From NCBI GenBank assembly GCA_000004695.1, contig CM000151.3, positions 4,960,001 through 5,024,000 on the forward strand: a stretch of DNA of 64,000 bases, given 5' to 3'. This document shows, piece by piece, positions 5,140 to 35,181 of this stretch. Made by a program: the position numbers and the translations under genes. The notes under the pieces were generated by a model. It worked only from the letters and a program-made list of their open reading frames with translations, ran no database searches and was not told the DNA's origin. The DNA is from Dictyostelium discoideum. Lineage: Eukaryota. The stretch's first letter is position 1; every line of letters begins with the position of its first letter.

Positions 5140-5913
5140 ATGATAGATCATAATAATATTATAATTGGTAATTCAATTAATAGTAAAACATTTTCATTAA
5201 TTGAATCAGTAAAGAATGGTAAATTAAAAGAATGTATTGGATATTTAGAAAAGATTAGATTACAAAATCCGTCATTAGATTTAGGAGAAATAATAAATAG
5301 TGGTGATGACTGTGGCAATACAGCATTGCATTGGGCATGTTATAAGAAATGGTATGATATTGTAAAGTATTTACTATCGATGGGGGCCGACCCGAATATA
5401 GCAAACACTGATGAATTACAAACACCATTTCAATGGGCATGCATCGGTGGTGATCTCCACATAGTGAAATACGTACTCAACAATGGCGGCGACCCACACC
5501 TCCAAGACAAGCGTGGCTACAATTCACTAATTCACGCCACACAGTATAATGAAATCAGCGTAGTTCGTTATCTGTTGGATAAAGGCGGTGTAAATGTAGA
5601 CTCGCCCGATTTCCTACAAAAAACGTCTCTCCACTGGGCTGCCTACCAAGGTCATACCCAACTCCTACTCTTTCTAGTCAACAAAGGTGCCGACATCAAC
5701 GCCTTGGACTCCCTCGGCCGTTCTCCATTGCATTGGGCTGCCTTCAAAGGTAACTCTGACCCAATTAAAGCACTCTGTGATTTTGGATCAAAAACTATGG
5801 AAAAAGATTCAAACAATCAATCTCCATCTGACATCTGTTCTTCTCAAAATCATAATTATCTCGCTCATTTCATTAAAACATTTAATTATCATCCATTTAG
5901 AAAAGTTGGTCCT
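5140..5913 (+). CDS. Ankyrin-repeat DHHC-type palmitoyltransferase (Akr1/HIP14-like), exon 1 (ankyrin repeats; GTATGT donor at 5914)
   Basis: 258 codons with at least 5 ankyrin repeats (GNTALHWACYKK.., TPFQWACIGGDLHIVKYVLNNGGDP.., SLIHATQYNE.., TSLHWAAYQGH.., SPLHWAAFKGN). The 82-nt intron 5914-5995 ends AAAG. Confidence 0.75.
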
Positions 5914-5995
5914 GTATGTACTTCTTTTATTACTACTACTATTATTATCATCACATATTTATTAATATATATACTAATATATATTTTATATAAAG

Positions 5996-6584
5996 TTATT
6001 ATATAATATATTTTGGATTATTTTTGCAATTTTATTACAATTATATTTTGGATTTATATTTTATCATTTTACATTAATACCAGCATTGATATTATTTGGA
6101 GCAAGTTTAACATGTTGCAAATTATTTATTGAACCAATTACATTGTCAAATTCACCAAATCCATTATTACCAACATGGATGATAACTTCATTTACGGTGT
6201 CATTCGTATACTATGTTAGATATGTGGTACCAGCATTTCCAAATATAATTCTAACACATACGATCACATTGTTTGTTTATTCAAGTTACTATTATTGTGC
6301 ATTTAAATTGTTTTTCAGTGATCCTGGTACGGTTTCCTCTTCTACGACATCACAAGATTCAAAGGATTTCATTAATGCCGTCGAAAAGGAATTGGAAATA
6401 CCAGAGGTTTGTTCAACTTGTTTAATCAATAAACCAATTCGTGCAAAACATTGTAGAACTTGTAAAAGATGTGTAGCAAGATTCGATCATCATTGTGCTT
6501 GGATTAATAATTGTGTTGGTGTAAATAATAATTTATTATTCATAATTTTATTATGTTTATTCAGTTTAGCTTATATTATTAGTG
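5996..6584 (+). CDS. Ankyrin-DHHC palmitoyltransferase, exon 2 (TM helices plus DHHC-CRD: [37 protein letters not shown]); donor GTAACT at 6585 (alternative GTAATG at 6603)
   Basis: The frame is open from 5978. The DHHC Cys-rich domain is present, with hydrophobic segments before and after it. The exon ends in phase 1 and joins exon 3 (TA+ATG...). Confidence 0.65.
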
Positions 6585-6697
6585 TAACTTTTAATTTTAA
6601 ATGTAATGTATTAATTAAAAATATATATATATTAATATCTATATATATTTATATATATACTAATATTTTTAAAAATAATAATAATATTATTTTTTAG

Positions 6698-7413
6698 TAA
6701 TGTCAATTGATGAGAATTCGCCATTATATTCAGAAGGTAAAATGGAATGGTGGACATATCACTATTCAACTTATAAAGGTTTAATTTTATTTACAATTTA
6801 TAAATCATTCATTATGGCATGGTTAGCAAGATTATTATATGTACAAATAACTGGTGTAATTAATAATGTCACAATGTTTGAATTAATGAAACCACCAAAA
6901 GGTTCAAAGAAGAAATGTTGTAATCATGCTCCACAAGATCAAAATAATAATAATAATAATAATAATACTACTACTAATAATAGTAGTAGTAGCAGTAGTA
7001 GCAATAATAATAGTACAGGTACAAATAATGATAATAATAATAATAATAATTTAGGTACAAGTAGTAATGAAAGTGGTCAATCAAATTGTAATATTGATCA
7101 ACATAATGATCATGATGGTCAATCAAGTGAACCATTATTAAATGAAGTTTCAATTCAAATTCGTAGTGAAAATGGAGTTGAGGAGGATGATGATGATGAA
7201 AATAATAAAAATCCTTCAAATAAATCATTTAATAAAAACTCTAGAGATTTAGATCCAACTCAAACTAATTTTAGAGATTCAATTTTAATTCCAAAAAGAA
7301 CAAATAATAATGAAAATCCATATGATAAAGGTTCAAGAGAAAATATTAGAGAATTCCTTTATGATACTTCAAAATGGTTTAGAACTACAACTTTTAGTAA
7401 TAAAAACTTTTAA
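6698..7413 (+). CDS. Ankyrin-DHHC palmitoyltransferase, exon 3 (post-DHHC TM segments and N/S-rich C-terminal tail)
   Basis: The AG acceptor is at 6696-6697. It is followed by (V)MSIDENSPLYSEGKMEWWTYHYSTYKGLILFTIYKSFIMAWLARLLYVQITGVINNVTMFELMKPPKG... and an Asn/Ser-rich tail. The stop is at 7411-7413. Confidence 0.65.
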
Positions 7414-7699: not shown

Positions 7700-7713
7700 A
7701 TATATTTTACGAA
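7700..7713. repeat. Target-site duplication (3'-side copy) of the TRE3-like element: CGAAGTTCGAATTT
   Basis: It is identical to 12842-12855 and abuts the element poly(A) (plus-strand poly-T). Confidence 0.7.
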
Positions 7714-7850
7714 GTTCGAATTTTTTTTTTTTTTTTTTTTGATATAAATAAACTATTGTAGTATACAATTAGTATGTTATTTTTATTTATTTATTTTAGG
7801 TTTTTTAGTTTTTGTGAATTTAAAATAGTATGTTATTTTAGATTAGGTAA

Positions 7851-10800
7851 TTAATAATTAATTGGTGGTGTAATTGTTGGAATTGGTTCATTTGTGTTTA
7901 TGCTCCATTCTTTTTTAAATTTTTTGATGGTTTCGGACCATTGGGTTTCTTTTTGAGTTTTTGTGAGGTTGTTTTTAATTGAGAATTGGTTAAAGTTTGA
8001 TAACCTTCTTGAATATTCCAATCTTATTAGCTTGTGCCATTTTGATTTTAATATATCATAATCTAGTGTTGTGTTGTTTATTTGGTTGTTCCAATTGTCA
8101 ATTGATTGAGTTATATTGATGTCAAATAATGATTTGCATAACCATATCCATATTTGGTGAATAACTAATGAGATTATGTTCCAATATGCATGTGTTCTGA
8201 CTAGATCAAGATTTGTGTTTATATAATTCCAGTTGAACCTGTATTTTTTATATTGTGCGTTTTCTGCAAAATGAAAATTAATATTGATAGTTGGATCTGG
8301 TTTAAATGCTTTGTTGTTTGTTTGTGGTTTATAAATGAGTGTGTATAATTTTGTTGTTTGGTTTTTTGTTAGTGACCAGTTTTTGTTTCCATTGCAATTT
8401 TTATATATAAAATATTTTAATTTGTCGTGGTTAATGAAGTTGATTGTGTGCTGACAATTGAAAAACAAATGACCATAGGGATCATTATTCATTTCATTGT
8501 TGCAAATGGGGCAAACTTTGTTGTGTAGATGATTAATCGGAAGACATCTAGCATGGAATCTTTGCATTGTATCTCGGCCTTTTGGATCTTTTAATTTTTG
8601 AATTTTGACAAAAAGTTGGTCGTATGTGTATTTCCATAATAGTTGTATTGATTGTTGGTGCGAAGTAAGAAGTAGATCTGAATATTTCTTGCCAATATAG
8701 TCTTTTGATTTGCATTGGTGATTGTTTAGTATTGTCGAGTAGATTTCTTTGAGTGTTGGTGGTAGTGAAATATTATTTGTGTTTAATGTTTGAGAGGGTT
8801 GGTTTTTTGTTAATATTGGTTGTAGGATTTGAACTTTATCTTTTAGATGTCCAATTTGAGTTGCATAGTTTTCCCATTCTTTTTTTATTTTTATAAGGTA
8901 TGGAGAAGAGATTGATTTGTTGATGATTTGATCCATCCAACTTATCATGTATATTGAATTGTTTGCAGATTTATGCATTTGTAAAAATCTGTTGTATATC
9001 CAAATCTTTTGAGCAACTTGTCGTAATTGGATATTCCACATACCCCAACCTCCTTCTTTTAATGGTTTTAATGATCTATCATAACACATCAAAGGTATTT
9101 TTGCACGTGAATGGATGGTTGATGTGTTGTTTTCAATGGAATTGGTATCGAGAGTTGGTGATTCAGAATTTGCGGGAGAATTCATAAACCATGAGATTAA
9201 TTTATTAATTTGAATTTCTTCATCTTTTTTGGTTATTGGAATTCTTTTTGATTGTGGAATGTTGTTTATTATGTGTTTATCAGTGATTTTGTGGGGGTTG
9301 ATTTCTATTATTGCACTTTTGTCAAAATTTAAAGATGATGATGTTGAAGCGCAGAAATTATCGAAATGTTTGATTGATTGTTGTTGTTGTTCGTAGTTGA
9401 TGTTGTATGTTGTAGAGTCGTCTGCAAATTGGGTAAATTTGATTTTAATTTGTGGATTGGGTGAAATTGGTAATCCAATTATTGAATTGTCTGCATTTAT
9501 TGTTCTTGCTAATATTTCAATTACAATTACAAATAAAGTGGCTGAGATTGGGTCACCTTGTTTTACACCTCTTTTAATATCGAATTTTCTGGTCGTTTTA
9601 CCATTAATTGAAATTTTTGCTTGTGAGTCAGATAATAGCTTGTGGATTAAATTTATTAATTTTATTGGTATACCAATATGAATTAATGTTCTTTTAATGC
9701 TATCGTGAGAGATAGAATCAAATGCTTTAAAGAAGTCAAATAGTGTGATGATACCAGGGAGGTTTTTAGATTTGAGGTAATTGATTAATTCATTGATGTT
9801 GATGATGTTGTCTATGATGAATCTGTGGGGTACGAAACCAGTTTGGTTGTTGTTGATGATGAAAGGAAGTATTCTCAGAAGACGTGCATTGATTACTTTT
9901 GAGAGGATCTTGTAATCAGTGTTTAGAAGTGTAATGGGACGACGATTTGATATGAGTAAGGGGTTGCCTTTCTTGTATATTGTGTGTATAAGACCTTCGG
10001 TGAATTCTGTTGTGATGTGGTGAGGATTTTCTAGTATATCGTTGAATAATGTAGTGAGAATTGGTTTAACTTGGTTTAAATGATTAATGTAGAATGCGTT
10101 TGTAACGCCATCTGGACCGGGTGATTTGTTGGGGTTACAGGTTTTAATTGCAGCTTCAACTTCATCTTGTATAAATGGTGAGTCTAAACCATTCCAATAT
10201 TCATTTTTTATGATGGGCCATGTGTTTAGCATGAGCTGGTGAGTAATTGGACAACATATTTGTAAGCTATATAGATTTGTGTAGAATTCAACAAACGCAT
10301 TTTCAATTTGGTCGGGGTCGGATGTAATTATGTTACCATATTGGATTGATTCAATTTTTGCATCTTTTGATCTTTTGTTTAGTATTGCTGATAGATACTT
10401 GCTAGGTATTTCTCCATTTATATGTTTTTTTAATATGTTTGTGTGGTTTTGATGTAATTTGTTTTTGTTACATATAATATTGTATTCAGCGATGCATTGT
10501 TCTTCAAGATGTTTGAATTTTGCTGCTTTTTCTAATAGTATTTGTTTTGCACGTTGAGTTTGTTTGTCTTTGTTATATTGATAGTTTTTTAGAGTTTTAA
10601 TAATTTTTGATTTTACTTTTGACCAGTTTGTAAATTGATTGATTGATGTGTTATTGTGATTAGTTATTAAATGATTGATAATATTGATTGCTTCATGGTC
10701 ATTTGCAGTACCAGGTGATAATATCCATCTTTTCTTATGTTTATTTATTTGAAAAGGTGAAGAAATTGTTGTTGATATTGGATTATGATCTGATAATGAA

Positions 10801-11477
10801 GATGGAATTTGGTGGACTTGTGTATATATATTTTCAGGGTCTATTCTATTGTATTGAGTATATATTCTATCTAATCTGTTGCCATGTGTATGAGTTGGAG
10901 TGTTTTTAAATTCACCTTGATCAATTAGATGGTGTTGGTATGTGTAGGATTGGATAATATCGTCTAATAGTGAATTGTCGTTGTGGATACAGTTGAAATC
11001 TCCTGCGATAATAGATACATGTTGGGATTGGTTTGGTATTGGGTTTGTTGAGTGGTTGTGGAGAAGTGTTTGTAGTGAAGTTGCATATGAATTCTTTTTG
11101 ATGGTATTATTTGATGCTGGTGCGTAAATTCCAAGAATACCAATTGGTAATTGATTTGGAAATATAACGTCTGCTAAAATAGCTCTACCATCAATTGTTG
11201 ATATGTGTTTGAGTTTGAGTGTGTTTGGGTTATGGTTAATGATGATTACACCATTTCCTCGTTTGGTGACAGAGATGATGTGATCGGGAAAATCATGTTT
11301 AAGTTGTAATGGTGATAAATTGAGTTCAGTGAGTATTGAGATTGTTGGACGAGGTGGAAGTTTTGATATAAGTAGTTGTAGTGTGTCAACAGCTTTTTGG
11401 TAGGAATTGTGTTGATTGTTTGGGTTTTCAGTGAATCCTCTACAATTCCATGTTATAAAGTTGATTTTTGAGCTCAT
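7851..11477 (-). CDS. Retrotransposon ORF2: apurinic-type endonuclease + reverse transcriptase + C-terminal Cys/His zinc knuckle (1208 aa, intact)
   Basis: The N-terminus is ITWNCRGF... (APE/EEP-like). The RT motifs are LLNTDYKILSK..., GFVPHRFI, and FTQFADDSTTY (FADD). The C-terminal motif is CPICNNEMNNDPYGHLFFNC.H. Its ATG overlaps the ORF1b stop (ATGA). Confidence 0.85.
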   Translation of the reverse strand: MSSKINFITWNCRGFTENPNNQHNSYQKAVDTLQLLISKLPPRPTISILTELNLSPLQLKHDFPDHIISVTKRGNGVIIINHNPNTLKLKHISTIDGRAILADVIFPNQLPIGILGIYAPASNNTIKKNSYATSLQTLLHNHSTNPIPNQSQHVSIIAGDFNCIHNDNSLLDDIIQSYTYQHHLIDQGEFKNTPTHTHGNRLDRIYTQYNRIDPENIYTQVHQIPSSLSDHNPISTTISSPFQINKHKKRWILSPGTANDHEAINIINHLITNHNNTSINQFTNWSKVKSKIIKTLKNYQYNKDKQTQRAKQILLEKAAKFKHLEEQCIAEYNIICNKNKLHQNHTNILKKHINGEIPSKYLSAILNKRSKDAKIESIQYGNIITSDPDQIENAFVEFYTNLYSLQICCPITHQLMLNTWPIIKNEYWNGLDSPFIQDEVEAAIKTCNPNKSPGPDGVTNAFYINHLNQVKPILTTLFNDILENPHHITTEFTEGLIHTIYKKGNPLLISNRRPITLLNTDYKILSKVINARLLRILPFIINNNQTGFVPHRFIIDNIININELINYLKSKNLPGIITLFDFFKAFDSISHDSIKRTLIHIGIPIKLINLIHKLLSDSQAKISINGKTTRKFDIKRGVKQGDPISATLFVIVIEILARTINADNSIIGLPISPNPQIKIKFTQFADDSTTYNINYEQQQQSIKHFDNFCASTSSSLNFDKSAIIEINPHKITDKHIINNIPQSKRIPITKKDEEIQINKLISWFMNSPANSESPTLDTNSIENNTSTIHSRAKIPLMCYDRSLKPLKEGGWGMWNIQLRQVAQKIWIYNRFLQMHKSANNSIYMISWMDQIINKSISSPYLIKIKKEWENYATQIGHLKDKVQILQPILTKNQPSQTLNTNNISLPPTLKEIYSTILNNHQCKSKDYIGKKYSDLLLTSHQQSIQLLWKYTYDQLFVKIQKLKDPKGRDTMQRFHARCLPINHLHNKVCPICNNEMNNDPYGHLFFNCQHTINFINHDKLKYFIYKNCNGNKNWSLTKNQTTKLYTLIYKPQTNNKAFKPDPTININFHFAENAQYKKYRFNWNYINTNLDLVRTHAYWNIISLVIHQIWIWLCKSLFDINITQSIDNWNNQINNTTLDYDILKSKWHKLIRLEYSRRLSNFNQFSIKNNLTKTQKETQWSETIKKFKKEWSINTNEPIPTITPPINY

Positions 11478-12680
11478 ACCTTACTAGGTTTGGCAGCACC
11501 AGTATTGACTGGTTGTGTAGTCAGGGCATTGCTGCTTCTTCTTGTATTTATTGGATTTGGAGTTGGTGCACTTGGTTTGTTTGGTTGAGATTGTAGAGGT
11601 TTTTGTGGTACAATTGTTGGATCGGTTGGATTGCTCATTGATAATGAGTTTTTCCCGTTATTATTATTTGAAGAATCACTTTTGTGTGAAATTTCATTAT
11701 TGTTTTGGGATTGATTGTTAATATCAAGTGATTCATTTAGTATAGCTTTTGAACCACTATTTTGAAGTGAGTTTTTATTGCGATTGGAATTTGCAATTTC
11801 GTTGATTGGTGGGGTGTTAATGTTGTTTTTTGGTGGTTGATTGTTTTTGTTCATGTTTGGGTTTGTGATGGCATTTTTTATAGTTGTTGCCATATCTGCA
11901 TTTTTTGCATGTTGAATTTTGTGTTTAGTGACACTACGTGTTGCAGCTTTGATATATCTTGTGATACCAGATGGTTGTTCGATCTTTTGATCAACAATGT
12001 TGTGTGTGATCAATTAGATGATATGTTATAATGTAGCTTTTAAACGCAACAGCATATGAGTATGTGACAGTAAATGATTCAATTGATGTACAACTGGTGA
12101 ATTTAGTGAGGTTGTTTGTAATTGCATCGTTTGCATGTTTGGGTGAGTACGTTTTAATGAATGTTTTAATGATTGCATAATCATTTGATGATATATCGAA
12201 TCTATAGTTGAGTTTGTCGATATTTAGTGCAAGTTGGTTTTGAAGGTTGATTATTGAAGTTAATTTATCAACGTTGCAATTTACGAAGGCAGTTGCACCA
12301 ATTATTTTGAATGCTGATGGCGACAGTATATCTTCGAAGAGTTTGTGAATGTTTTTGTGAATTTGTTGAATTCTTGTGTCATCTTTTGAGGTTAATTCTT
12401 CACGGATGTGTGGTTGATTAAAGTAACACTTAATGTTGATGGTGTTATTGTTTTTTTCTAAGAAAGAGAGTGGTCTTGTGATTGATGGAGGTGCAATGAT
12501 ATCTAATTGATTATCAAGTCCTTTGTTTAGTGAGAGTTGGTTTGTTGGGGTTTGTTTTTTAGGTGTGTCGATTTTTACACTTTTGTTTTTTGTTGTTGAG
12601 GTTGTGGAGGTATTATTTGTATTTGTTGTGTTGTTATCTGTATGATTTAACTGTAATTCAGTTGAGTGATCATCAGCCAT
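11474..12680 (-). CDS. Retrotransposon ORF1, bipartite. ORF1a is 12680..11991 (229 aa). ORF1b is 12013..11474 (179 aa), in the +1 frame with a 23-nt overlap. The same split is present in two further partial copies in this window.
   Basis: Both parts are N/T/S-rich and basic. The identical ORF1a stop and ORF1b start context recur at 22054-22076 and 22676-22698. That argues for a family feature rather than a private frameshift. Confidence 0.6.
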
Positions 12681-12841
12681 TGTTGAAAAGTATATAGGAC
12701 GATAGCCCTTGCTTTAATGAGCAAAAATAGGGTAAAATTAAGAGGAATGAATGTGGCGGTGAAGATATAACAGTGATTTATTTATTATATGTATAAATTC
12801 TCGTTTATTTCTTTGTTTTTTCGGTTTTTTGTTTTTTCAAT

Positions 12842-12855
12842 CGAAGTTCGAATTT
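12842..12855. repeat. Target-site duplication (5'-side copy) of the TRE3-like element. It contains a TTCGAA B-box-like core (ex-B box) 23-36 bp downstream of tRNA-Met.
   Basis: It is identical to 7700-7713 and lies directly outside the element's 5' UTR. Confidence 0.7.
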
Positions 12856-12877
12856 AGTGAAATTTCTAAAAAAGAAA

Positions 12878-12950
12878 TGTCAAGTCAGAGGATCGAACTC
12901 TGGACCTTAGGATTATGAGACCTACGCTCTACCAACTGAGCCAACCTGAC
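12878..12950 (-). tRNA. tRNA-Met (anticodon CAU), elongator type
   Basis: On the minus strand it reads GTCAGGT-T-G-GCTCAGTTGGTAGAGC-G-TAGGT-CTCATAA-TCCTA-AGGTC-CAGAG-TTCGATC-CTCTG-ACTTGAC-A. The cloverleaf has a 7-bp acceptor stem with one G·U pair. The anticodon stem has the U31·U39 mismatch typical of eukaryotic elongator Met. Confidence 0.9.
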
Positions 12951-12964
12951 ATGTTGATATTTTT

Positions 12965-13235
12965 TGTAATAAAGTTACTCTATAAAATTAATAGATATTA
13001 AATATGCATATTACATTACTAATTATAGTTGACACACATTTAAATAATATAATAATAATAATAATAATAATAATACTGTCAACTCATTATGAATAATATA
13101 AATACTAAAGAATAATTTTATAAACAATATTGAATATTATAAATATAAATTAATATTAAATAAAGATAACAAAGTATTATTCAATTATATAATTATTAAT
13201 TATATATATTTATAAAGCTAACAAGCTTTATTACA
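12965..13235 (+). repeat. 5' LTR of the gypsy-type element
   Basis: TGTAATAAAGTTACTC...CTTTATTACA. It matches 17736-18003. Confidence 0.9.
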
Positions 13236-13348
13236 TTTGGCGACATCGTCTTTCAAAAAAAAAAAAAAAAAAAAATATACTATAAATATAAAGTTATCAA
13301 ATTATTCAATCAATTAAAATTTTACATTAGATTAAATTTAATTTAATA

Positions 13349-13437
<89 letters not shown>

Positions 13438-13571
13438 TTATTATGAAAACCGTATTTTTTTCGGGTAATGGAAAGGGTTAATCATTCTTTAATTTCAACC
13501 ACTAACTCTTATTAATTCATGGCGAGGAAATATCGAAAGCTGATATTATTAGAAAACTAAGAAACAATGCA

Positions 13572-16500
13572 TTGGAATATGCCGCAACATTGGATACAGA
13601 CTTAACAGCAATGGAGATAATTGAAGATCTTAAAGATGCTTTTGATATTGGTGATAGTGATGATTTATCAGATTTAACAAAGTTAGGAGAATATAAATAC
13701 AATACATTAGATATATTAATTGGTAAATTTCTTTCAAAATGTTCAGCAGTTGATATTTCAGAAAAGTTTAAAATACAATTGTTTTATTCAGCTGTTGGTA
13801 TTGAATTGGGTATTGAAATTACAAAATGTGCACCAAAATCATTAAAAAGAGCAATAGACATTGCAAAGTCTTGTGAAGATGGTTCAATTCGTATGAGAGG
13901 TAGATCAATGTATACTGGTCAATTGGTTGCAAAAACATTACAAGAATTTGGAACTCAAAAGTATCTTGGTTCTGGATCTGGTTATACAACATCACCACAG
14001 TACGTTACATCTCAAACTGAACAATCTACTGAAACTGAAGTATTAGCAACTCCAATTTATAAAAATCAAACATATTCACCACCACCATCACCTTATAAAG
14101 CACCACAAAATCAAGTAAATTCAATCACAAAATTTTGTAAATATTGCAAAAAGAAAGGTCATGTAATTCAAGAGTGTTGGTCTAAAGATAAAAAGAATAA
14201 TTATAATGAGAATAAACAATCATATAATAATCATAGCACTAATGCAATTACAATGGTTAATGATAAAACGATTAATTCTATTGGAACTGATAGTATGAAT
14301 GCAGCATTATTAATAAATGATAAGAATGTTAGAGGTTTAGTTGATACTGGTTCTTCTCTTACCATCATTTGGGAAAGTATTGCTAAAAAATTAAATTTAA
14401 AAGTTGAAGGTAAATCATTTTCAGTTAATTCAGCATCAAATAATGAAATTAAGATAGTTGGTAGTTGTGATACCATAATTAAATTAGGTAAAGCATCCGC
14501 AAAAGTTAATGTTAATATTGTTAAAGATAATGATACTTCAATCGATTGCATTTTTGGTGTAGATACACTTATTGGATTGAAATTAATAATTGATTGCAAG
14601 GAAATGATCATTAAGAATCTTGAATTTAATGTTGGTACAAGATTAATCACCAGAGAAACCAAACCAATTGTTTGCAAAATTGATCTAAATATATTAGAAA
14701 AAGTATCAAAACCAATGGCTGAGTTATTAATCAAAAATGAAGAGATTTTTGAAACCAAATTGTCAAAACCAGGATCATTAATAGATGTTGAACATTCAAT
14801 TAAATTAACTGATGAAAATGTTTCTGTTTATACTCCACCATACAAAACTAGTCCAGCTGATAAAGAATTCATTGAAGAATACATTAAAGATGCATTAGAT
14901 AAAGGTATAATCGAGAAATCAGATTCATCACAATACGGTTCTCCAATAGTCTTATCCAGAAAGAATGATAAAATTAGATTTTGTGTTAATTATAAAAAAC
15001 TAAATGACCTCACAATTAAAGATAGATATCCACTTCCATTAATTTCTGATTGTTGGTATTATCTCAAAGATGCAAAAGTTTTCTCAAAAATTGATCTTAC
15101 TTCTGGTTATTATCAAATCAAAATGAAAGAAGAGGACAAGGATAAAACAACCTTTGTCTCTCATATGGGTCAATTTAGATATGTTGTAATGCCATTTGGA
15201 TTATGTAATGCACCAGCAACTTTTCAAAGATACATGAATGAATTATTAAAGGATGAATTAAGAAAAAGTAATATTGGGTTTATTGACGATTGTATAATTT
15301 ATAGCAAGAATAATGAATATCATATTGAACATGTCAAACTATTATTCGAAAAATTCAAAGAAAAAGGTGCAAAGTTACAAATAACTAAATGTGAGTTTGA
15401 AAAAGAAGAGATCAAGTTTTTGGGATATATCGTTTCAAAGAATGGTATTACTTATGATAGTTCAAAGTTTAATGAATTATTAAAAACACCACCTCCATCA
15501 AATCAAAAAGAATTAATGAAATTACTCGGTACTGTCAATTACTTTAGAACATTCATTAAAAATTTCACTCATTTAACTTCATCATTTTATCCACTATTAA
15601 AGAAGGGTGTTAATTTCAAATGGACTGATGAATTGGAAAATGATCGTGTAAAATTATTTACTACATTAGCACAAACTAATCTTTTAAGTTTTCCACAAGA
15701 TACAGATGATAATGTTATTGAAACTGATGCTTCAATTATTGGTATTGGTGGTGTAATGATTCAAAATGGTAAACCAGTTTCTTATTATTCAAGAACATTA
15801 AACAACGCTGAAAAGAATTATTCTGTTACTGAAAGAGAATGTTTGGCAATCATTGAATCAATTAAATATTTTAAATCCTATATCAATGGTAGAAAAGTAA
15901 AAATCATCACTGATCATCAACCTTTGAAATATCTCTTAACTGGTAAATTTACTGATCGTATTACAAGATGGACTGTATTACTTCAAGAGTATAATTACGA
16001 AATTATATATAGACCTGGTAAAGAAAACTTTTTAGCTGATGCATTATCAAGATGTCCAGATAGAGATCAACAGCCAATTGATTGTGATATTCCAGAAAAG
16101 ATATTTACAATTACTCACTATCCAGTAGCTTCACCATCAACTACAATTTTACCAAGAGTCTTACCATCAAGATCAAATCAAACATCTAATGTTTCACCAG
16201 CTACAACAATTCAACCACCAAATTCATCAAGTTCAAATCAATCATCAAATATCCCACCAACAACAAACCAATCATCAAATATTACAAATCAACCAATAAA
16301 TACTTCATCAATGAATTTAAATCAATCATTATCAAATCAAGCAACAACCGCTAGATTATTGAATAGTGTACCTATCTCAATCAACAATGATAATATTAAT
16401 ACAACAACTCCACAATTTACACAAGAGTCAATAAGAAAAGAGTTGGAAAAAGAAAATTATTATAGAGCAATGTATAAATATCTTGAAGAAACAAGACTTC

Positions 16501-17723
16501 CAGACAATGCACAAGCAGCAAGAAGAATTTTGTTCGAGTCTGAATTTTATTCAATGATTAATGGATTTCTTTGTCACGGTTTAAAACATACTTTATCAAG
16601 TAAGAAATCTCATTTTAAACATCTTCAAATTGTAGTTCCAAAAACTATGACTAAATGGATAATGGAAATATTTCATGATTCGCCACTTACTGGAGGACAT
16701 TTTGGATTATTAAAAACTGTCGCAAAAATCAAAGAAAGATTCTATTGGATTGGTATGATTAAGGATATAAAAGAATTTATCGATAAATGTACAACTTGTT
16801 TACAAATTAAAAGAAAGTATGGTCCAAAAGAAGGTTTACTCATTCCAATTGAGATTGAACCTGAACCATTTAATACAATTGGTATTGATTTTATTGGTCC
16901 AATTACAAAAGATAATGCTCAAGTTTATTTGTTGGTTGTTATGGATTATTTTACTAAATGGCCAGAAGTTTTCTTTACCCTTGATATGGAAGGGGAGACT
17001 GTAGCTCAATTATTGTTGTATGAAATCTATACTAGATATGGGGTTCCAAAGAAGTTGGTTTCTGATCGTGGTAAGAATTTTTTAAGTAATGTAGTCTCTG
17101 GTGTTAATAAATTATTCGGTGTTCACAAATTAACAACTACTGCTTATCACCCACAATGTGATGGTCAAACTGAAAATTTCAATAATACATTAATTAAGAT
17201 GCTCAAAGCTTTTATTGGTAATGAATTGTATGGCAATTGGGGTGAATTATTAAGATGTGTTTTATACTCATACAGAATTACACCACATGTTTCAACTGGT
17301 TTTTCACCCTTTTTCTTACTTTTTAATCGTCAACCAACTTTACCATTAGATACAACTTTAAATGTAAATTTTTATTCAAATTCACTAAGATTAGATTTCG
17401 CTGATAATTATGCACAATCCGTAAATAATAATCTTAAACGTGCCTTTTGGTTTACAAAGAATAATCTCGATAAAGCTCAAGAATTACAAAAAACAAATTA
17501 TGATAAAGGTCGTCGTCCAACAAATATTCAAACAGGTGATTTTGTTTATTTACATACACCATATTCACAAACTTCTATTGGTCCAAAGAAATTCTATAAA
17601 CCTTGGAGAGGTCCTTTTAAAGTTCAAGAAAAAGTTAGCGATGTTACATTCAAATTAGATATGGGTAATCTTAGAGATCATAAAGTAGTCAATATTGAAA
17701 GATTGAAAAAAATTTTCAACTAA
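13572..17723 (+). CDS. Gag-Pol polyprotein (1383 aa, intact): CCHC zinc knuckle, aspartic protease, reverse transcriptase, RNase H, integrase
   Basis: The zinc knuckle is CKYCKKKGHVIQEC. The protease motif is LVDTGSS. The RT motifs are YVVMPFGLCNAPATFQRYM and FIDDCIIYS (YxDD). The integrase HHCC finger is H..H...CTTCLQIK. A DDE core and a C-terminal GPF/Y-type module (WRGPFKV) follow. The order PR-RT-RH-IN indicates Ty3/gypsy. Confidence 0.9.
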   Translation: MEYAATLDTDLTAMEIIEDLKDAFDIGDSDDLSDLTKLGEYKYNTLDILIGKFLSKCSAVDISEKFKIQLFYSAVGIELGIEITKCAPKSLKRAIDIAKSCEDGSIRMRGRSMYTGQLVAKTLQEFGTQKYLGSGSGYTTSPQYVTSQTEQSTETEVLATPIYKNQTYSPPPSPYKAPQNQVNSITKFCKYCKKKGHVIQECWSKDKKNNYNENKQSYNNHSTNAITMVNDKTINSIGTDSMNAALLINDKNVRGLVDTGSSLTIIWESIAKKLNLKVEGKSFSVNSASNNEIKIVGSCDTIIKLGKASAKVNVNIVKDNDTSIDCIFGVDTLIGLKLIIDCKEMIIKNLEFNVGTRLITRETKPIVCKIDLNILEKVSKPMAELLIKNEEIFETKLSKPGSLIDVEHSIKLTDENVSVYTPPYKTSPADKEFIEEYIKDALDKGIIEKSDSSQYGSPIVLSRKNDKIRFCVNYKKLNDLTIKDRYPLPLISDCWYYLKDAKVFSKIDLTSGYYQIKMKEEDKDKTTFVSHMGQFRYVVMPFGLCNAPATFQRYMNELLKDELRKSNIGFIDDCIIYSKNNEYHIEHVKLLFEKFKEKGAKLQITKCEFEKEEIKFLGYIVSKNGITYDSSKFNELLKTPPPSNQKELMKLLGTVNYFRTFIKNFTHLTSSFYPLLKKGVNFKWTDELENDRVKLFTTLAQTNLLSFPQDTDDNVIETDASIIGIGGVMIQNGKPVSYYSRTLNNAEKNYSVTERECLAIIESIKYFKSYINGRKVKIITDHQPLKYLLTGKFTDRITRWTVLLQEYNYEIIYRPGKENFLADALSRCPDRDQQPIDCDIPEKIFTITHYPVASPSTTILPRVLPSRSNQTSNVSPATTIQPPNSSSSNQSSNIPPTTNQSSNITNQPINTSSMNLNQSLSNQATTARLLNSVPISINNDNINTTTPQFTQESIRKELEKENYYRAMYKYLEETRLPDNAQAARRILFESEFYSMINGFLCHGLKHTLSSKKSHFKHLQIVVPKTMTKWIMEIFHDSPLTGGHFGLLKTVAKIKERFYWIGMIKDIKEFIDKCTTCLQIKRKYGPKEGLLIPIEIEPEPFNTIGIDFIGPITKDNAQVYLLVVMDYFTKWPEVFFTLDMEGETVAQLLLYEIYTRYGVPKKLVSDRGKNFLSNVVSGVNKLFGVHKLTTTAYHPQCDGQTENFNNTLIKMLKAFIGNELYGNWGELLRCVLYSYRITPHVSTGFSPFFLLFNRQPTLPLDTTLNVNFYSNSLRLDFADNYAQSVNNNLKRAFWFTKNNLDKAQELQKTNYDKGRRPTNIQTGDFVYLHTPYSQTSIGPKKFYKPWRGPFKVQEKVSDVTFKLDMGNLRDHKVVNIERLKKIFN

Positions 17724-17735
17724 AAGGGGGGGATA

Positions 17736-18003
17736 TGTAATAAAGTTACTCTATAAAATTAATAGATATTAAATATGCATATTACATTACTAATTATAGT
17801 TGACACACATTTAAATAATATAATAATAATAATAATAATAATACTGTCAACTCATTATGAATAATATAAATACTAAAGAATAATTTTATAAACAATATTG
17901 AATATTATAAATATAAATTAATATTAAATAAAGATAACAAAGTATTATTCAATTATATAATTATTAATTATATATATTTATAAAGCTAACAAGCTTTATT
18001 ACA
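17736..18003 (+). repeat. 3' LTR of the gypsy-type element
   Basis: Same sequence as the 5' LTR with a 3-bp microsatellite difference. Confidence 0.9.
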
Positions 18004-18457
18004 TTTTGAAATATTTTTGAAATATTTTTGCACCATTACGTTTTATTTCCATTCCAAAAAAAAAAAACGTTTTATTTTTCATTGGGAAGAAACTAATAAT
18101 TGTGTTATCCAATTCAAAAAAGTATTTTTCATTTAAATTATTTTTTTTATATAATTCTACAGTATTTCATGAATGTTCATTTTTATTCTTTATTATTTTT
18201 TTTTTTTTAATTTTTAATTTTTTTTTTTTTTTTTTTTGAAAATTAAAATCAAAACCAAGATATTTTTTTTTTTTTCTTCCCTTATTTTTTTTTTTTTATT
18301 TTTATAACTATTCTTTAATAGAATTCTTTTTTTAAAAAAAAAGAACACCATGGAAGCTTTTTTGTTTTTTTTTTAAAAATGGATATAAATTATTATTTTT
18401 TTTTTTTAAAAAAATAAAACAAGATAATATCCAAAAATAAATAAAACAGAAAAAAAA

Positions 18458-18973
18458 ATGCCTCCAAAGATTAAAATAATTACAGGTCCAATCGGTTCTG
18501 GAAAAACAACAATTTTAAATAGAATCAAAGAGTCATATGAAAGAAAAGAAATCTTTATTGGTCAAAAGGTTGGATTTTTTGGTGAACCTACTGATTCCAC
18601 TGTAGCTAATGCTCTCCTAAAGGATATGTACTCAAAGTTTCCATTTGCTAATGATCAGTTTGAAACTTTACAAAAATACCTAATGGCTGTGGAAGCTAAT
18701 GATTTATGTAATGCTTTGTCATCGTCAGAGTATGATATTGTTTACTTTGATACATCGGTTTTGTATGGAGTTGTATTTTTACAAACTGCTAATGATTTGA
18801 AAATCATAAACAATCAAACCTATTCAAATTGTCTAACGTTTTACTATCAAATGATTTCAAATATTAATTTCGAAAATGCTGAAGTAACCAATTTAAAAGT
18901 CATACCACACATAGGTGTATGGAGCAAATTAACCAAAGAGGTAGAGCCTTTGAAGTCGGTAGTTTATCTATAG
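18458..18973 (+). CDS. P-loop NTPase resembling the deoxynucleoside-kinase family. The ORF appears interrupted: the LID-like motif ..RGRAFEVG..YVSKL continues in another frame at ~18945-19050. It is a possible pseudogene or sequence error.
   Basis: The Walker A motif is GPIGSGKTT. An EP..D motif is present. A second frame encodes QRGRAFEVGSLSIDYVSKLTDKIRSHCVSQVYQDLKNQ*, resembling the dNK LID region R..RGR.eE..I..eYL..L. Confidence 0.35.
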   Translation: MPPKIKIITGPIGSGKTTILNRIKESYERKEIFIGQKVGFFGEPTDSTVANALLKDMYSKFPFANDQFETLQKYLMAVEANDLCNALSSSEYDIVYFDTSVLYGVVFLQTANDLKIINNQTYSNCLTFYYQMISNINFENAEVTNLKVIPHIGVWSKLTKEVEPLKSVVYL

Positions 18974-21254: not shown

Positions 21255-21328
21255 GCCTTAGTAGCTCAGTTGGTACGAGCGTGAGACTGAAGATCTTAAG
21301 GTCGCTGGTTCGATCCCGGCCTGAGGCA
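21255..21328 (+). tRNA. tRNA-Phe (anticodon GAA)
   Basis: GCCTTAG-TA-GCTC-AGTTGGTAC-GAGC-G-TGAGA-CTGAAGA-TCTTA-AGGTC-GCTGG-TTCGATC-CCGGC-CTGAGGC-A. The cloverleaf is canonical and the acceptor stem is fully paired. Confidence 0.9.
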
Positions 21329-21345
21329 AATATTTTTTGATGGTT

Positions 21346-22374
21346 TTCCAATGGCTGATGATCACTCCGCCGAAAAGACACAGTCTGATCACAGGTAAAA
21401 AAAAAAAAAAAAAAAGTTAAATCATACAGATAACAACACAACCAATACAAATAATACCTCCACAACCTCAACAACAAAAAACGAAAGTGCAAAAATCGAC
21501 ACACCTAAAAAACAAACCCTAACAAACCAACTCTCACTAAACAAAGGACTTGATAATCAATTAGATATCATTGCACCTCCATCAATCACAAGACCACTCT
21601 CCTTCTTAGAAAAAAACAATAACACCATCAACATTAAGTGTTACTTTAATCAACCACACATCCATGAAGAATTAACCTCTAAAGATGACACAAGAATCCA
21701 ACAAATTCACAAAAATATTCACAAACTCTTCGAAGATATACTGTCGCCATCAGCATTTAAAATAATTGGTGCAACAGCCTTGGTAAATTGCAACGTTGAT
21801 AAATTAACTTCAATAATCAACCTTCAAAACCAACTTGCACTAAATATAGACAAACTCAACTATAGATTCGATATATCATCAAATGATTATGCAACCATTA
21901 AAACATTCATTAAAACGTACTCACCCAAACATGCAAACGATGCAATTATAAACAACCTCACTAAATTCACCAGTTGTACATCAATTGAATCATTTACTGT
22001 CACATACTCATATGCTGTTGCGTTTAAAAGCTACATTATAACATATCATCTAATTGATCACACACAACATTGTTGATCAAAAGATCGAACAACCATCTGG
22101 TATCACAAGATATATCAAAGCTGCAACACGTAGTGTCACTAAACACAAAATTCAACATGCAAAAAATGCAGATATGGCAACAACTATAAAAAATGCTCTC
22201 ACAAACCCAAATATTAACAAAAACTATCAACCACCAAAAAACAACATTAACACCCCACCAATCAACGAAATTGCAAATTCCAATCGCAATAATAACCCAC
22301 TTCAAAATAGTGGTTCAAAAGCTACACTAAATGAATCACTTAATAATAACGGGAAAAACTCATTATCAATGTGA
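21346..22374 (+). mobile_element. TRE3-like retrotransposon fragment, plus-strand arm. It covers ORF1 from its ATG (no 5' UTR) to inside ORF1b. It begins 18 bp downstream of tRNA-Phe and is truncated at the palindrome centre.
   Basis: It is ~90-95% identical to 12680-11640 on the opposite strand. The ORFs 21780..22076 and 22054..22374 reproduce the ORF1a end and the ORF1b start. Confidence 0.8.
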
Positions 22375-23480
22375 GATTTCATTATTGTTTTGGGATTGAT
22401 TGTTATTATTAAGTGATTCATTTAGTGTAGCTTTTGAACAACTATTTGGAAGTGGGTTATTATTGTGATTGGAATTTGCAATTTCGTTGATTGGTGGGGT
22501 GTTAATGTTGTTTTTTGGTGGTTGGTTGTTTTTGTTAATATTTGGGTTTGTGAGAGCATTTTTTATAGTTGTTGCCATATCTGCATTTTTTGCACGTTGA
22601 GTTTTGTGTTTAGTGACACTACGTGTTGCAGCTTTGATATATCTTGTGATACCAGATGGTTGTTCGATCTTTTGATCAACAATGTTGTGTGTGATCAATT
22701 AGATGATATGTTATAATGTAGCTTTTAAACGCAACAGCATATGAGTATGTGACAGTAAATGATTCAATTGATGTACAGCTGGTGAATTTGGTGAGGTTGT
22801 TTGTAATTGCATCGTTTGCATGTTTGGGTGAGTACGTTTGAATGAATGTTTTAATGATTGCATAATCATTTGATGATATTTCGAATCTATAGTTGAGTTT
22901 GTCGATATTTAGTGCAAGTTGGTTTTGAAGGTTGATTATTGAAGTTAATTTATCAACATTGCAGTTTACGAAGGCAGTTGCACCAATTATTTTAAATGCT
23001 GATGGCGACAGTGTATCTTCGAAGAGTTTGTGAATGTTTTTGTGAATTTGTTGAATTCTTGTGTCATCTTTAGAGGTTAATTCTTCACGGATGTGTGGTT
23101 GATTAAAGTAACACTTAATGTTGATGGTGTTATTGTTTTTTTCTAAGAAGGAGAGTGGTCTTGTGATTGATGGAGGTGCAATGATATCTAATTAATTATC
23201 AAGTCCTTTGTTTAGTGAGAATTGGTTTGTTGGGGTTTGTTTTTTAGGTGTGTCGATTTTTGCACTTTTGTTTTTTGTTGTTGAGGTTGTGGAGGTATTA
23301 TTTGTATTGGTTGTGTCGTTATCTGTATGATTTAATTGTAATTCAGTTGAGTGATCATCAGCCATTGTTGAAAGGTATATAGGACGATAGCCCTTGCTTT
23401 ACTGAGCAAAAATAGGGCAAAATTAAGATGAATGAATGTGGTGGTAAAGATATAACAGTGATTTATTTATTATATGTATA
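22375..23480 (-). mobile_element. TRE3-like retrotransposon fragment, minus-strand arm (5' UTR + ORF1a + start of ORF1b). It is inverted relative to the adjacent plus arm, forming a ~1.0-1.1 kb palindrome.
   Basis: 23341-23470 matches the first copy's 5' UTR (12681-12830). The ORF 22366..22698 is the ORF1b start. Both arms end at the same internal position, within ~50 bp. Confidence 0.8.
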
Positions 23481-23517
23481 AATTCTTGTTTATTTCTTTG
23501 TTTCGTTTTTTTTCATA

Positions 23518-29080: not shown

Positions 29081-29790
29081 TCTTTTAAAAATTATTTGTT
29101 GTGTTTTGAAGAAGGAAAAAAAAAAAAAATAAAAAAATAAAAAAAAAAAAGTAAAAAACAAAAAAAAAAGCGAAAAAATGAAAAATAAAAAAATTAAATT
29201 TAGAAATAAAATTATTAATTATTATTATTATTATTATTTTATTTTAACCTTAAATAATTAAATAAATAATAATAATTAATATAAAACAATTATACAAAGT
29301 TTTAATTTATTATTTTTATTTTAATTTTTAATATAAAGTCAATTATTAATATTTTTTTTATTTTGTATGATTAATTTTTTTTTTGTTTTTTTTTTTTTTA
29401 TATTGATCCATTAAAGGAAATAAACAGTAATAAATAGATTTTTTTATGGATTTTAATTTAAAAAGTTAAGTTTTTTTTTTTTTTTCTTTTTTTTTTTTTT
29501 TTAAGGAACCAATATTGTTTCAGTTTAGGTTGTCTAAATAGAATATTTGGTTAGTTAAAAGAAGATAAAATTACTACTATTTTGGGAATTATTTAAATAA
29601 ATTGGTGGAAAGAGACTAGGTTTGGGATCACTGATTTCGGAATGCAATAAACTTTGCATGTTAAGTTTCTTAAATTAATAATTTGAGGAAAAAATTTGGA
29701 TCTTTGAAGTGATGATCGATTATTAAATTTGGTTACATTTGAAGTAACAAAGCGTCGAACTTGTGATCTATAAATTACGTGAGAAAATTA

Positions 29791-29863
29791 CGCCCAAAGG
29801 GGGGCTCGAACCCCCGACCACAAGGTTAAAAGCCTTGCGCTCTACCGACTGAGCTATCTGGGC
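29791..29863 (-). tRNA. tRNA-Lys (anticodon UUU)
   Basis: On the minus strand it reads GCCCAGA-TA-GCTC-AGTCGGTA-GAGC-G-CAAGG-CTTTTAA-CCTTG-TGGTC-GGGGG-TTCGAGC-CCCCC-TTTGGGC-G. An ex-B-box-like AGTTCGACGC lies 30 bp downstream at 29752-29761. Confidence 0.85.
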
Positions 29864-30594
29864 AATATTGTTAAATTTTTTGGAAAATTTTCAAATTTTA
29901 TACTGAATTTTTTTACAACGGATCCTCTTCCATAAAAACAAAAACAAAAAATATAAATTCAAACGTAATGGTTCATTCGCCATGGGTCATACAAAAAAAA
30001 AAATAAATAAAAAATTGAATTAAAACAAACTTTGTTCTTTTTTTATAAAACTACTTAAAAACATCTAAAAAGGTGGTTATAAAAAAAAAAAAAAACCAAG
30101 AAAAGCACACATTTAAACGAAATTTTAGTTTTTTATGGCATTTTTAAAAATGTAAAATTTTTTTTTAAAAATCAAAAAAAAAAAAAAAAAGATTGAATAA
30201 GCATAAAAAAAAAAAAGATTAAATAGGCCTTCAATTTTTTAACCCATTCACAGAATCCTCGAGAAAAAATATCTTTTACCATTGCAATTTCCAAAACGAA
30301 AGAGGAGCATTCCAACTGACAGTAAAAAAAATAAATAAAAAAATAAATATTTGGAAGGAAAAAATCAATTTGCCGAGCAATGAGTGTTTTAATTCACCAA
30401 AAAAATAATTTATTACAAATAAACAATAGATTATTCATACTATTTTCTGAGCGAAATAGATATTTCCAAGCCTATTGATAATGTCGTAAATTTATTTCTT
30501 TTTTTTTTTTCAAAAGTTTATAACCATTTTTTTTTTTTTTTTTTTTTTTTGTTAATAAGTTTTAGGTTCTATTACACTAAAAAAACAATATATA

Positions 30595-35093: not shown

Positions 35094-35181
35094 TGACTCC
35101 TTAGCATAGTGGTTTATTGTAATTGTCTCCAAAACGTTAGAAGTTAGCAGTTGGTCCAGGGTTCAACTCCCTGAGGGGTCT
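35094..35181 (+). tRNA. tRNA-Trp (anticodon CCA) with a 13-nt intron (35133-35145) at the canonical 37/38 position. Pol III terminator TTTTT at 35186.
   Basis: GACTCCT-TT-AGCATAGTGGTTTATTG-T-AATTGT.. The anticodon stem is ATTGT/GCAGT around the loop CTCCAAA, with the intron AACGTTAGAAGTT, then A38. The variable loop is TGGTC. The T arm is CAGGG-TTCAACT-CCCTG. The acceptor 3' strand is AGGGGTC. The ex-B box GGTTCGAATC lies at 35209-35218. Confidence 0.7.

Follow-up and report, generated by a model that had tools for sequence, protein, structure and literature searches.

A tRNA-Met gene on Dictyostelium discoideum chromosome 2 flanked by DGLT-A and TRE3 retrotransposons, with two assemblies that disagree on the integrity of DGLT-A

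Several retrotransposons of Dictyostelium discoideum use tRNA genes as landmarks. At least one TRE is found at 61% of the tRNA genes of this species and TRE5 and TRE3 occur together at 13%, and such multiply occupied genes, known also for TRE5-A (DRE), are cases in which one tRNA gene is the landmark for several retroelements (PMC5006619). The non-long terminal repeat (non-LTR) retrotransposon TRE3 lies 14–228 bp downstream of the 3′ end of a tRNA gene in the same orientation (PMC5006619, PMC5911963) and inserts downstream of an internal or external B box, a description given with no molecular mechanism (PMC5911963); a search for a published molecular mechanism of TRE3 targeting found none. 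The Ty3/gypsy LTR retrotransposon DGLT-A integrates 13–33 bp upstream of tRNA genes (PMC5006619), mostly at 13–18 bp, the distance of 18 of 20 copies (PMC6101501). Its RNase H and the N terminus of its integrase contact the TFIIIC subunit Tfc4 in two-hybrid and pull-down assays, whereas the integrase of the Saccharomyces cerevisiae element Ty3 binds TFIIIB (Brf1/TBP) (PMC6101501); Ty3 also has separate GAG3 and POL3 frames, and DGLT-A a single open reading frame (ORF). Here we analyse a 64,000-nucleotide stretch of D. discoideum chromosome 2 (assembly GCA_000004695.1, contig CM000151.3, positions 4,960,001–5,024,000; the window), in which a tRNA-Met gene has a DGLT-A element on its upstream side and a TRE3 element on its downstream side. 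We propose that this gene was, very probably, hit independently by two known tRNA-gene-targeting retrotransposons.

The first-pass annotation of this DNA had singled out the arrangement as notable, an assessment that the published frequencies do not bear out. The locus is an ordinary instance of behaviour already described for D. discoideum, not a discovery, and its value is that of a clean example: DGLT-A about 15 bp upstream, TRE3 downstream and several elements at one tRNA gene in a compact genome. It differs from the tRNA genes occupied by TRE5 in its upstream occupant, which here is low-copy DGLT-A (20 insertions genome-wide); for a TRE5 one would expect a distance of about 50 bp upstream and the opposite orientation.

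The tRNA-Met gene was recovered with the Rfam tRNA model (12878–12950, minus strand; 64.8 bits against a gathering score of 29) and with ARAGORN (12877–12951, minus strand), and its 73-nucleotide (nt) sequence is predicted to fold into a canonical cloverleaf with a 7-bp acceptor stem, in agreement with its original identification. The gene carries G1–C72 and a TTCGATC T-loop, not the initiator features A1:U72 and A54/A60, which we take to mark it as an elongator tRNA; an initiator identity was ruled out on these sequence features. The T6 run directly 3′ of the gene is presumably its RNA polymerase III (Pol III) terminator. With the Rfam ends, the gene is separated from the DGLT-A LTR at 12965 by 14 nt (12951–12964) and from the 5′ end of TRE3 at 12841 by 36 nt (12842–12877), exactly the distances given by the first-pass annotation. 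All features are listed in Table 1.

Identification of the upstream element, at first described as gypsy-type, as DGLT-A is supported by the identity of its protein, its primer-binding site, the lack of a chromodomain and its position 14 bp upstream of the tRNA gene. The polyprotein is 97.6% identical over 1431 amino acids (aa) to the DGLT-A polyprotein AAG37039.1 (Q9GQ51), the length of which, 1437 aa, is that of the published DGLT-A ORF (PMC6101501). Residues 227–1437, including the RNase H and integrase regions, are 100% identical to AAG37039.1; gag residues 79–226 differ from it and are of a variant type found in paralogs. The Pfam matches follow one another in one frame in the Ty3/gypsy order (aspartyl protease, reverse transcriptase (RT), RNase H, integrase zinc-binding domain and integrase core), and a gag zinc knuckle, CKYCKKKGHVIQEC (CX2CX4HX4C), is found at residue 235. 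The primer-binding site TGGCGACATCGTCTTTC is exactly the one published for DGLT-A (PMC5006619). Absence of a chromodomain after the integrase is the trait that distinguishes DGLT-A from Skipper (PMC5006619), and Pfam gave no chromodomain match (PF00385) in the window protein, the C terminus of which is a short Integrase_p58_C/SH3-like stretch.

In its overall build, too, the copy resembles the described element, with a single gag–protease–RT–RNase H–integrase ORF, TG...CA LTRs of about 268 bp and a polypurine tract. Element and tRNA gene are divergently oriented, with the 5′ LTR turned towards the tRNA 5′ end. At 5039 bp it differs slightly from the 5054-bp consensus, which has 265-bp LTRs (PMC5006619), and it departs from DGLT-A further in the variant gag and in two stop codons, considered below. 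A possible target-site duplication (TSD), TTTT(T/G) at 12960–12964 and 18004–18008, is uninformative in DNA of about 23% GC (22.7% across the window). The 5′ untranslated region of the element (13255–13433) consists mostly of very long A runs, the lengths of which differ by 3, 8 and 8 nt between assemblies.

The downstream element is a long interspersed nuclear element (LINE), and its assignment to TRE3, as had been proposed, is supported by its protein and its position. ORF2 is 98.8% and 99.3% identical, in two aligned blocks, to the D. discoideum GenBank entry AAD43057.1; the database name of this entry is just ‘pol’, and we infer that it is a TRE3 from the genomic behaviour of the family. 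The element and the tRNA gene are both on the minus strand, 36 nt apart and within the range published for TRE3. ORF1 is followed by ORF2 in the −1 frame, the ORF1 stop and the ORF2 start overlapping as ATGA, and ORF2 encodes an apurinic/apyrimidinic (AP) endonuclease (Exo_endo_phos, residues 8–231), an RT (RVT_1, residues 502–724) and a C-terminal CCHC zinc finger (CPICNNEMNNDPYGHLFFNC, residue 989); with its poly(A) tail, its 14-bp TSD and its downstream, same-orientation position, the copy has the build of TRE3. Its ORF2 is identical at 1208 of 1208 residues to the AX4 gene model DDB_G0275221, on the 8.48-Mb chromosome; together with the GC content of the window and its collinearity with a second D. 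discoideum assembly, described below, this supports an AX4-like chromosome 2 origin. In protein-cluster look-ups, relatives of ORF1 were found only in D. discoideum, as is likewise reported for TRE ORF1 proteins (PMC5006619), and the family returned one GenBank ‘pol’ entry and no ‘gag’ entry. The start of the element, first placed at 7714, moves to 7724, as positions 7710–7723 are the TSD.

The 14-nt TSD, CGAAGTTCGAATTT, has exactly two matches in the 64 kb, where 0.03 would be expected, and two or more matches were obtained in 0 of 100 shuffles. The B-box-like TTCGAA core first noticed within it is part of a degenerate motif that, in the copy next to the tRNA gene, lies at about the position taken by the external (ex-) B box at other tRNA genes. 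TTCGAA occurs 15 times in 64 kb, which corresponds to 0.007 expected per 30-nt interval, and this rarity makes its presence at +26 unlikely to be due to chance. The motif, AAATTCGAAC, has the TTCGAA core only, without the GG and CC flanks. Clear B-box-like motifs were found at three other tRNA genes, those for tRNA-Lys, tRNA-Trp and tRNA-Thr (Table 1); they are read on the tRNA strand and have their TTCGA core +30 to +32 past the tRNA 3′ end. Another assembly contains a TRE3 copy of the window’s family (locus L002) that also adjoins a B-box-like sequence, GGTTCAAATCC. The motif at +26 is probably a weak putative ex-B box. In this the copy differs from what is described for TRE3: at 36 bp it lies at the short end of the range, and its TSD covers the ex-B-like motif in place of lying well downstream of it.

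Two observations stand beside these motifs. At 87 nt, the tRNA-Trp gene probably contains an intron. The L002 copy is a full-length TRE3; a tRNA-Lys gene of the same orientation stands 58 nt upstream of it, and a second copy follows it in tandem (L002 2280–2345 and 7640–7735). There, a B-box-like sequence, GGTTCAAATCCCAG, is found between a 17-nt repeat, TTTTAGTATTACCAAAA, and the canonical TRE3 5′ end, and could either be the ex-B box of that tRNA-Lys gene or have been brought in from a donor locus.

These features suggest how the locus may have arisen. The tRNA-Met gene would have stood in a spacer of about 0.87 kb between the genes for an ankyrin-repeat DHHC palmitoyltransferase and a small P-loop kinase-like protein; the former ends at 7413, the ORF of the latter starts at 18458, and subtraction of both elements and one TSD copy leaves about 870 bp. 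Neither insertion disrupts the flanking host genes. DGLT-A would have inserted 14 bp upstream, at the Pol III start-site region, and TRE3, probably TRE3-B, would have integrated 36 bp downstream in the orientation of the tRNA gene by target-primed reverse transcription, giving rise to a 14-bp duplication that overlaps the weak external B-box-like motif. TRE3 would recognize B-box or TFIIIC-bound DNA. We found no empty-site allele: a single orthologous locus was recovered, L003 in a second D. discoideum assembly, and it has both insertions, which argues that neither is a recent private event.

Homing of both retroelement classes on Pol III complexes, suggested by the first-pass annotation and already published, is supported by this locus. 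Selection offers a different account, in which the elements land widely and only copies in harmless tRNA-adjacent spacers survive, with no homing at all. De novo integration has been followed experimentally just for TRE5-A, and the evidence for DGLT-A and TRE3 consists of genomic distribution and protein-interaction assays (PMC5006619, PMC6101501), as such an account would allow. Survival would not, on the other hand, give precision on the scale of base pairs, and this DGLT-A copy, at 14 bp, falls among the 18 of 20 that lie at 13–18 bp upstream (PMC6101501). TRE3 copies are consistently in the tRNA orientation (the window copy, the L002 copy at 58 nt and a fragment at a tRNA-Phe gene), and insertion would have been harmless at many other places in the original spacer of about 870 bp. 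We regard survival without homing as highly implausible. Some points do weigh against independent targeted insertion as proposed here: the TTTT duplication of DGLT-A is of too low complexity to fix its point of integration with certainty; TRE3 is nearer the tRNA gene (36 bp) than the usually quoted distance of about 100 bp, though within the published 14–228 bp; the ex-B-like box is degenerate, AAATTCGAAC compared with a box of the GGTTCGAANC type, and lies at +26 rather than +30 to +32; and the TFIIIC/Tfc4 mechanism is taken from the literature, target recognition by TRE3 being our own suggestion.

The TRE3 subfamily was assigned by element length without the poly(A) tail, and on this measure the window copy is likely to be TRE3-B. 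Published consensus lengths are 5229 bp for TRE3-A, 5279 bp for TRE3-B and 4734 bp for TRE3-C. An undeleted copy of the window’s family, that at L002, measures 5306 bp and is closest to TRE3-B, and a second family (the P0011 cluster, seen at locus L001), with an ORF2 38% identical, measures 5233 bp and is closest to TRE3-A. Assignment of the window copy to TRE3-A instead is unlikely, despite the many gene models that its family has in AX4 and the second assembly and the description of TRE3-A as the most abundant TRE3 (PMC5911963). Both lengths point away from it, as the other abundant family (79 members) is the one that matches TRE3-A. So do the gene identifiers: dictyBase labels DDB_G0291686 ‘TRE3-B ORF2’ (PMC12405889), and the model with the adjacent identifier, DDB_G0291688, belongs to the window’s family, being a truncated model that stops where a second model would begin. 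The proteins P0003, P0006 and P0008 were considered as a second subfamily at 80% identity and ruled out; without gaps they are mostly 90–99% identical, which marks them as gapped models of the same family. At L001 (1–7305), two copies of the second family, about 5.23 kb in length, stand in tandem, with an ORF1 of 416 aa and an ORF2 of 1059 aa; we take this family to be TRE3-A by its length, and its protein cluster, which includes D. citrinum, is the largest that we saw.

The window TRE3, first called full-length, does run from end to end, but is short of 201 bp of ORF2 and 2 nt of ORF1. The 201-bp deletion is in frame and removes 67 aa (...QSERVLGYFFN...LEEFTKD); comparison with L002 places the lost segment between two copies of the 10-nt repeat AAAAGATGAA. 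The 67-aa gap starts 20 residues past the end of the Pfam RT match and is absent from the reference and from every other copy examined. The 1208-aa ORF2 with the same deletion is also present at L003, in the second assembly. From general LINE RT architecture, we assume that the segment lost contains the final conserved block of the RT together with the beginning of the thumb. ORF1 is frameshifted near position 12000, where the window has (CA)3 and L002 and L003 have (CA)4, and this 2-nt loss leaves 229 aa followed by a second frame. Because tblastn alignments of other copies shift frame at the same residue, a split ORF1 was considered as a feature of the family and was ruled out by the uninterrupted 402-aa ORF1 of L002 and L003. 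Judged from the deletion next to its RT domain, this TRE3 copy cannot be autonomous. The earlier suggestion of two intact elements that could still be active does not hold for TRE3, given the 67-aa deletion in two assemblies and the ORF1 frameshift in the window, and a demonstrably non-autonomous TRE3 copy is a useful by-product of the analysis; for DGLT-A the window has stop codons and the L003 copy is intact.

Further TRE3 sequence lies elsewhere in the window (21351–23512), where two 3′-truncated 5′ parts of the element, comprising 5′ untranslated region and ORF1 only, are arranged tail to tail. They form an inverted repeat with arms of 934 nt (21417–22350 and 22402–23335) that are 97% complementary and separated by a 51-nt spacer, and the plus arm starts about 12–23 nt past a tRNA-Phe gene (21255–21328). 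Since LINE copies are normally 5′-truncated, 3′ truncation of the arms needs a rearrangement such as fold-back. The inverted repeat is also present in L003. That it marks the middle of the large chromosome-2 duplication of AX4 was considered and ruled out, as its arms are just 934 nt long and the flanks differ.

The two assemblies disagree on the integrity of DGLT-A. In the window, the polyprotein frame read from the ATG at 13434 contains TAA at 13479–13481 (codon 16) and at 13503–13505 (codon 24), where the reference has leucine; the element is structurally complete, as first annotated, with an ORF that has two stops. This agrees with the published record, in which none of the 20 DGLT-A insertions in D. 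discoideum is full-length with intact ORFs (PMC5006619, PMC5633606). The orthologous locus L003 (GCA_054883475.1, JBTAPE010000033.1:1289104–1309417) is collinear with window positions 5415–25723 at 99.49% identity and matches in gene content, from the ankyrin-DHHC gene through TRE3, tRNA-Met and DGLT-A to the downstream genes and tRNA-Phe. Its DGLT-A has the same LTRs, primer-binding site, polypurine tract and distances, and its 1437-aa ORF is uninterrupted, with 3 differences from AAG37039.1. Over the 20.3 kb compared, 96 of the 104 differing positions fall within 13255–14090, leaving 8 in the remaining 19.5 kb or so. The existence of any intact D. discoideum DGLT-A may hinge on this locus, over which the assemblies disagree for about 840 bp, and on this disagreement depends whether DGLT-A is open to study as a live element. 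The copy is young, as its LTR pair shows 0 substitutions and differs solely by one AAT unit.

Piecewise comparison showed that the window DGLT-A is a mosaic of its ortholog at L003 and a paralog on another chromosome of the second assembly (L004). The 5′ LTR and positions 15501–17735 are 100% identical to the ortholog, and the tract between 13661 and 15500 matches the paralog perfectly; positions 13661–14095 are only 89% identical to the ortholog. Positions 13434–13520, which contain both stops, are 84.5% identical to each of three other copies, and within the 70-nt patch that holds the stops the ortholog and two paralogs do not differ among themselves. The substitutions in this patch have no directional bias, and a signature of editing or hypermutation was ruled out on this ground. 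The patch resembles an artefact, of sequence or of assembly, or else a conversion tract, and the mosaic as a whole fits either a repeat-confounded assembly or ectopic conversion together with a cluster of mutations.

The chances seem to us evenly balanced that the DGLT-A copy at the tRNA-Met gene is really intact and potentially mobile, the stops and the paralog-type tract being repeat-confounded assembly errors introduced by reads of another DGLT-A copy and a low-quality stretch. The uninterrupted ORF of L003 speaks for intactness, as does the scarcity of differences between the assemblies outside 13255–14090, the change between tracts perfectly matching the paralog and the ortholog, and the nature of the patch, with 13 private changes that lack mutational bias, compensating 1-nt indels and three other copies in agreement against it. 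The reference AAG37039.1, moreover, has gag of the L003 type, and the window type is found in two AX4 models of its protein cluster. The AX4 model DDB_G0294236, partial and on a separate 9.5-kb contig, argues the other way: from codon 44 onward its identity to the window version is 100%, so that the paralog-type tract is reproduced within the AX4 data. The same mosaic would be left by ectopic gene conversion between dispersed copies, which does occur, and polishing of the second assembly could have homogenized repeats. A further point against is that the disagreement may be a real strain difference produced by gene conversion rather than an assembly error. Somewhat short of even odds, in our judgement, is the fuller statement that DGLT-A is here an intact, very young copy as in GCA_054883475.1 and that the stops and paralog-type tract of the window are mis-assembly. 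If it is true, an assembly artefact would underlie the published absence of DGLT-A copies with intact ORFs, and the tRNA-Met locus would be the candidate master copy of a still-mobile DGLT-A.

The paralogs in GCA_054883475.1 (L004 2073–7092 and L005 2080–7030) have one truncated LTR each, and ARAGORN found no tRNA gene within 2.5 kb of either. L005 is the ortholog of AX4 DDB_G0280521 and has an uninterrupted 1422-aa ORF with in-frame deletions.

Table 1 Features of the tRNA-Met locus and of the tRNA genes used for comparison (window coordinates unless a locus is named)
Feature	Position	Strand	Basis or remark
Elongator tRNA-Met(CAU) gene (A box; B box AGTTCGATCC)	12878–12950	−	Rfam, ARAGORN, cloverleaf fold
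T6 run directly 3′ of the tRNA gene, between it and TRE3	12868–12873	−	Sequence read
14-nt spacer, tRNA nucleotide 1 to DGLT-A LTR	12951–12964		Last 5 nt, TTTTT, a possible TSD copy
DGLT-A Ty3/gypsy LTR retrotransposon, 5039 bp	12965–18003	+	LTRs, domains, reference identity
5′ LTR, 271 bp, TG...CA	12965–13235	+	One extra AAT unit relative to 3′ LTR
3′ LTR, 268 bp, TG...CA	17736–18003	+	Direct-repeat comparison
Primer-binding site TGGCGACATCGTCTTTC, 2 bp past the left LTR	13238–13254	+	Exact sequence occurs once in the window
Polypurine tract AAAAGGGGGGGA, separated from the 3′ LTR by 2 nt (AT)	17722–17733	+	Sequence read
Gag–protease–RT–RNase H–integrase polyprotein frame	13434–17723	+	Collinear with the 1437-aa reference; longest open stretch 13572–17723
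Anomalous 70-nt patch with both stops	13436–13504	+	13 private differences including two compensating 1-nt indels
Paralog-type tract	13661–15500	+	100% identical to L004
TRE3 non-LTR retrotransposon (probably TRE3-B), 5118 bp	7724–12841	−	End to end, with internal lesions
TRE3 poly(A) tail (A17; T17 on the plus strand)	7724–7740	−	Sequence read
TRE3 5′ untranslated region, 161 nt	12681–12841	−	Aligns with other copies to about 11 nt from the end
TRE3 ORF1, 402 aa in intact copies	11474–12680	−	Split in the window
TRE3 ORF2, 1208 aa: AP endonuclease, RT, CCHC zinc finger	7851–11477	−	67 aa short of the 1275-aa reference
Junction of the 201-bp in-frame deletion	9219–9228	−	10-nt direct repeat AAAAGATGAA kept once
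Distal TRE3 TSD copy CGAAGTTCGAATTT	7710–7723		Abuts the poly(A) end
Proximal TRE3 TSD copy, tRNA strand AAATTCGAACTTCG	12842–12855		Degenerate ex-B-like box, TTCGA core at +26
tRNA-Lys gene	29790–29864		Ex-B-like box CAAGTTCGACGC
tRNA-Trp gene	35095–35181		Ex-B-like box TAGGTTCGAATCTC
tRNA-Thr gene	L001 9481–9552		Ex-B-like box AGGTTCGATTCC

Of the neighbouring genes, that on the left (5140–7413), encoding the ankyrin-repeat DHHC palmitoyltransferase, is read in several ORF pieces. On the right, the small P-loop (deoxynucleoside-kinase-like) ORF (18458–18973) lies 455 bp past the DGLT-A 3′ LTR on the same strand, and read-through from the LTR into it is conceivable.

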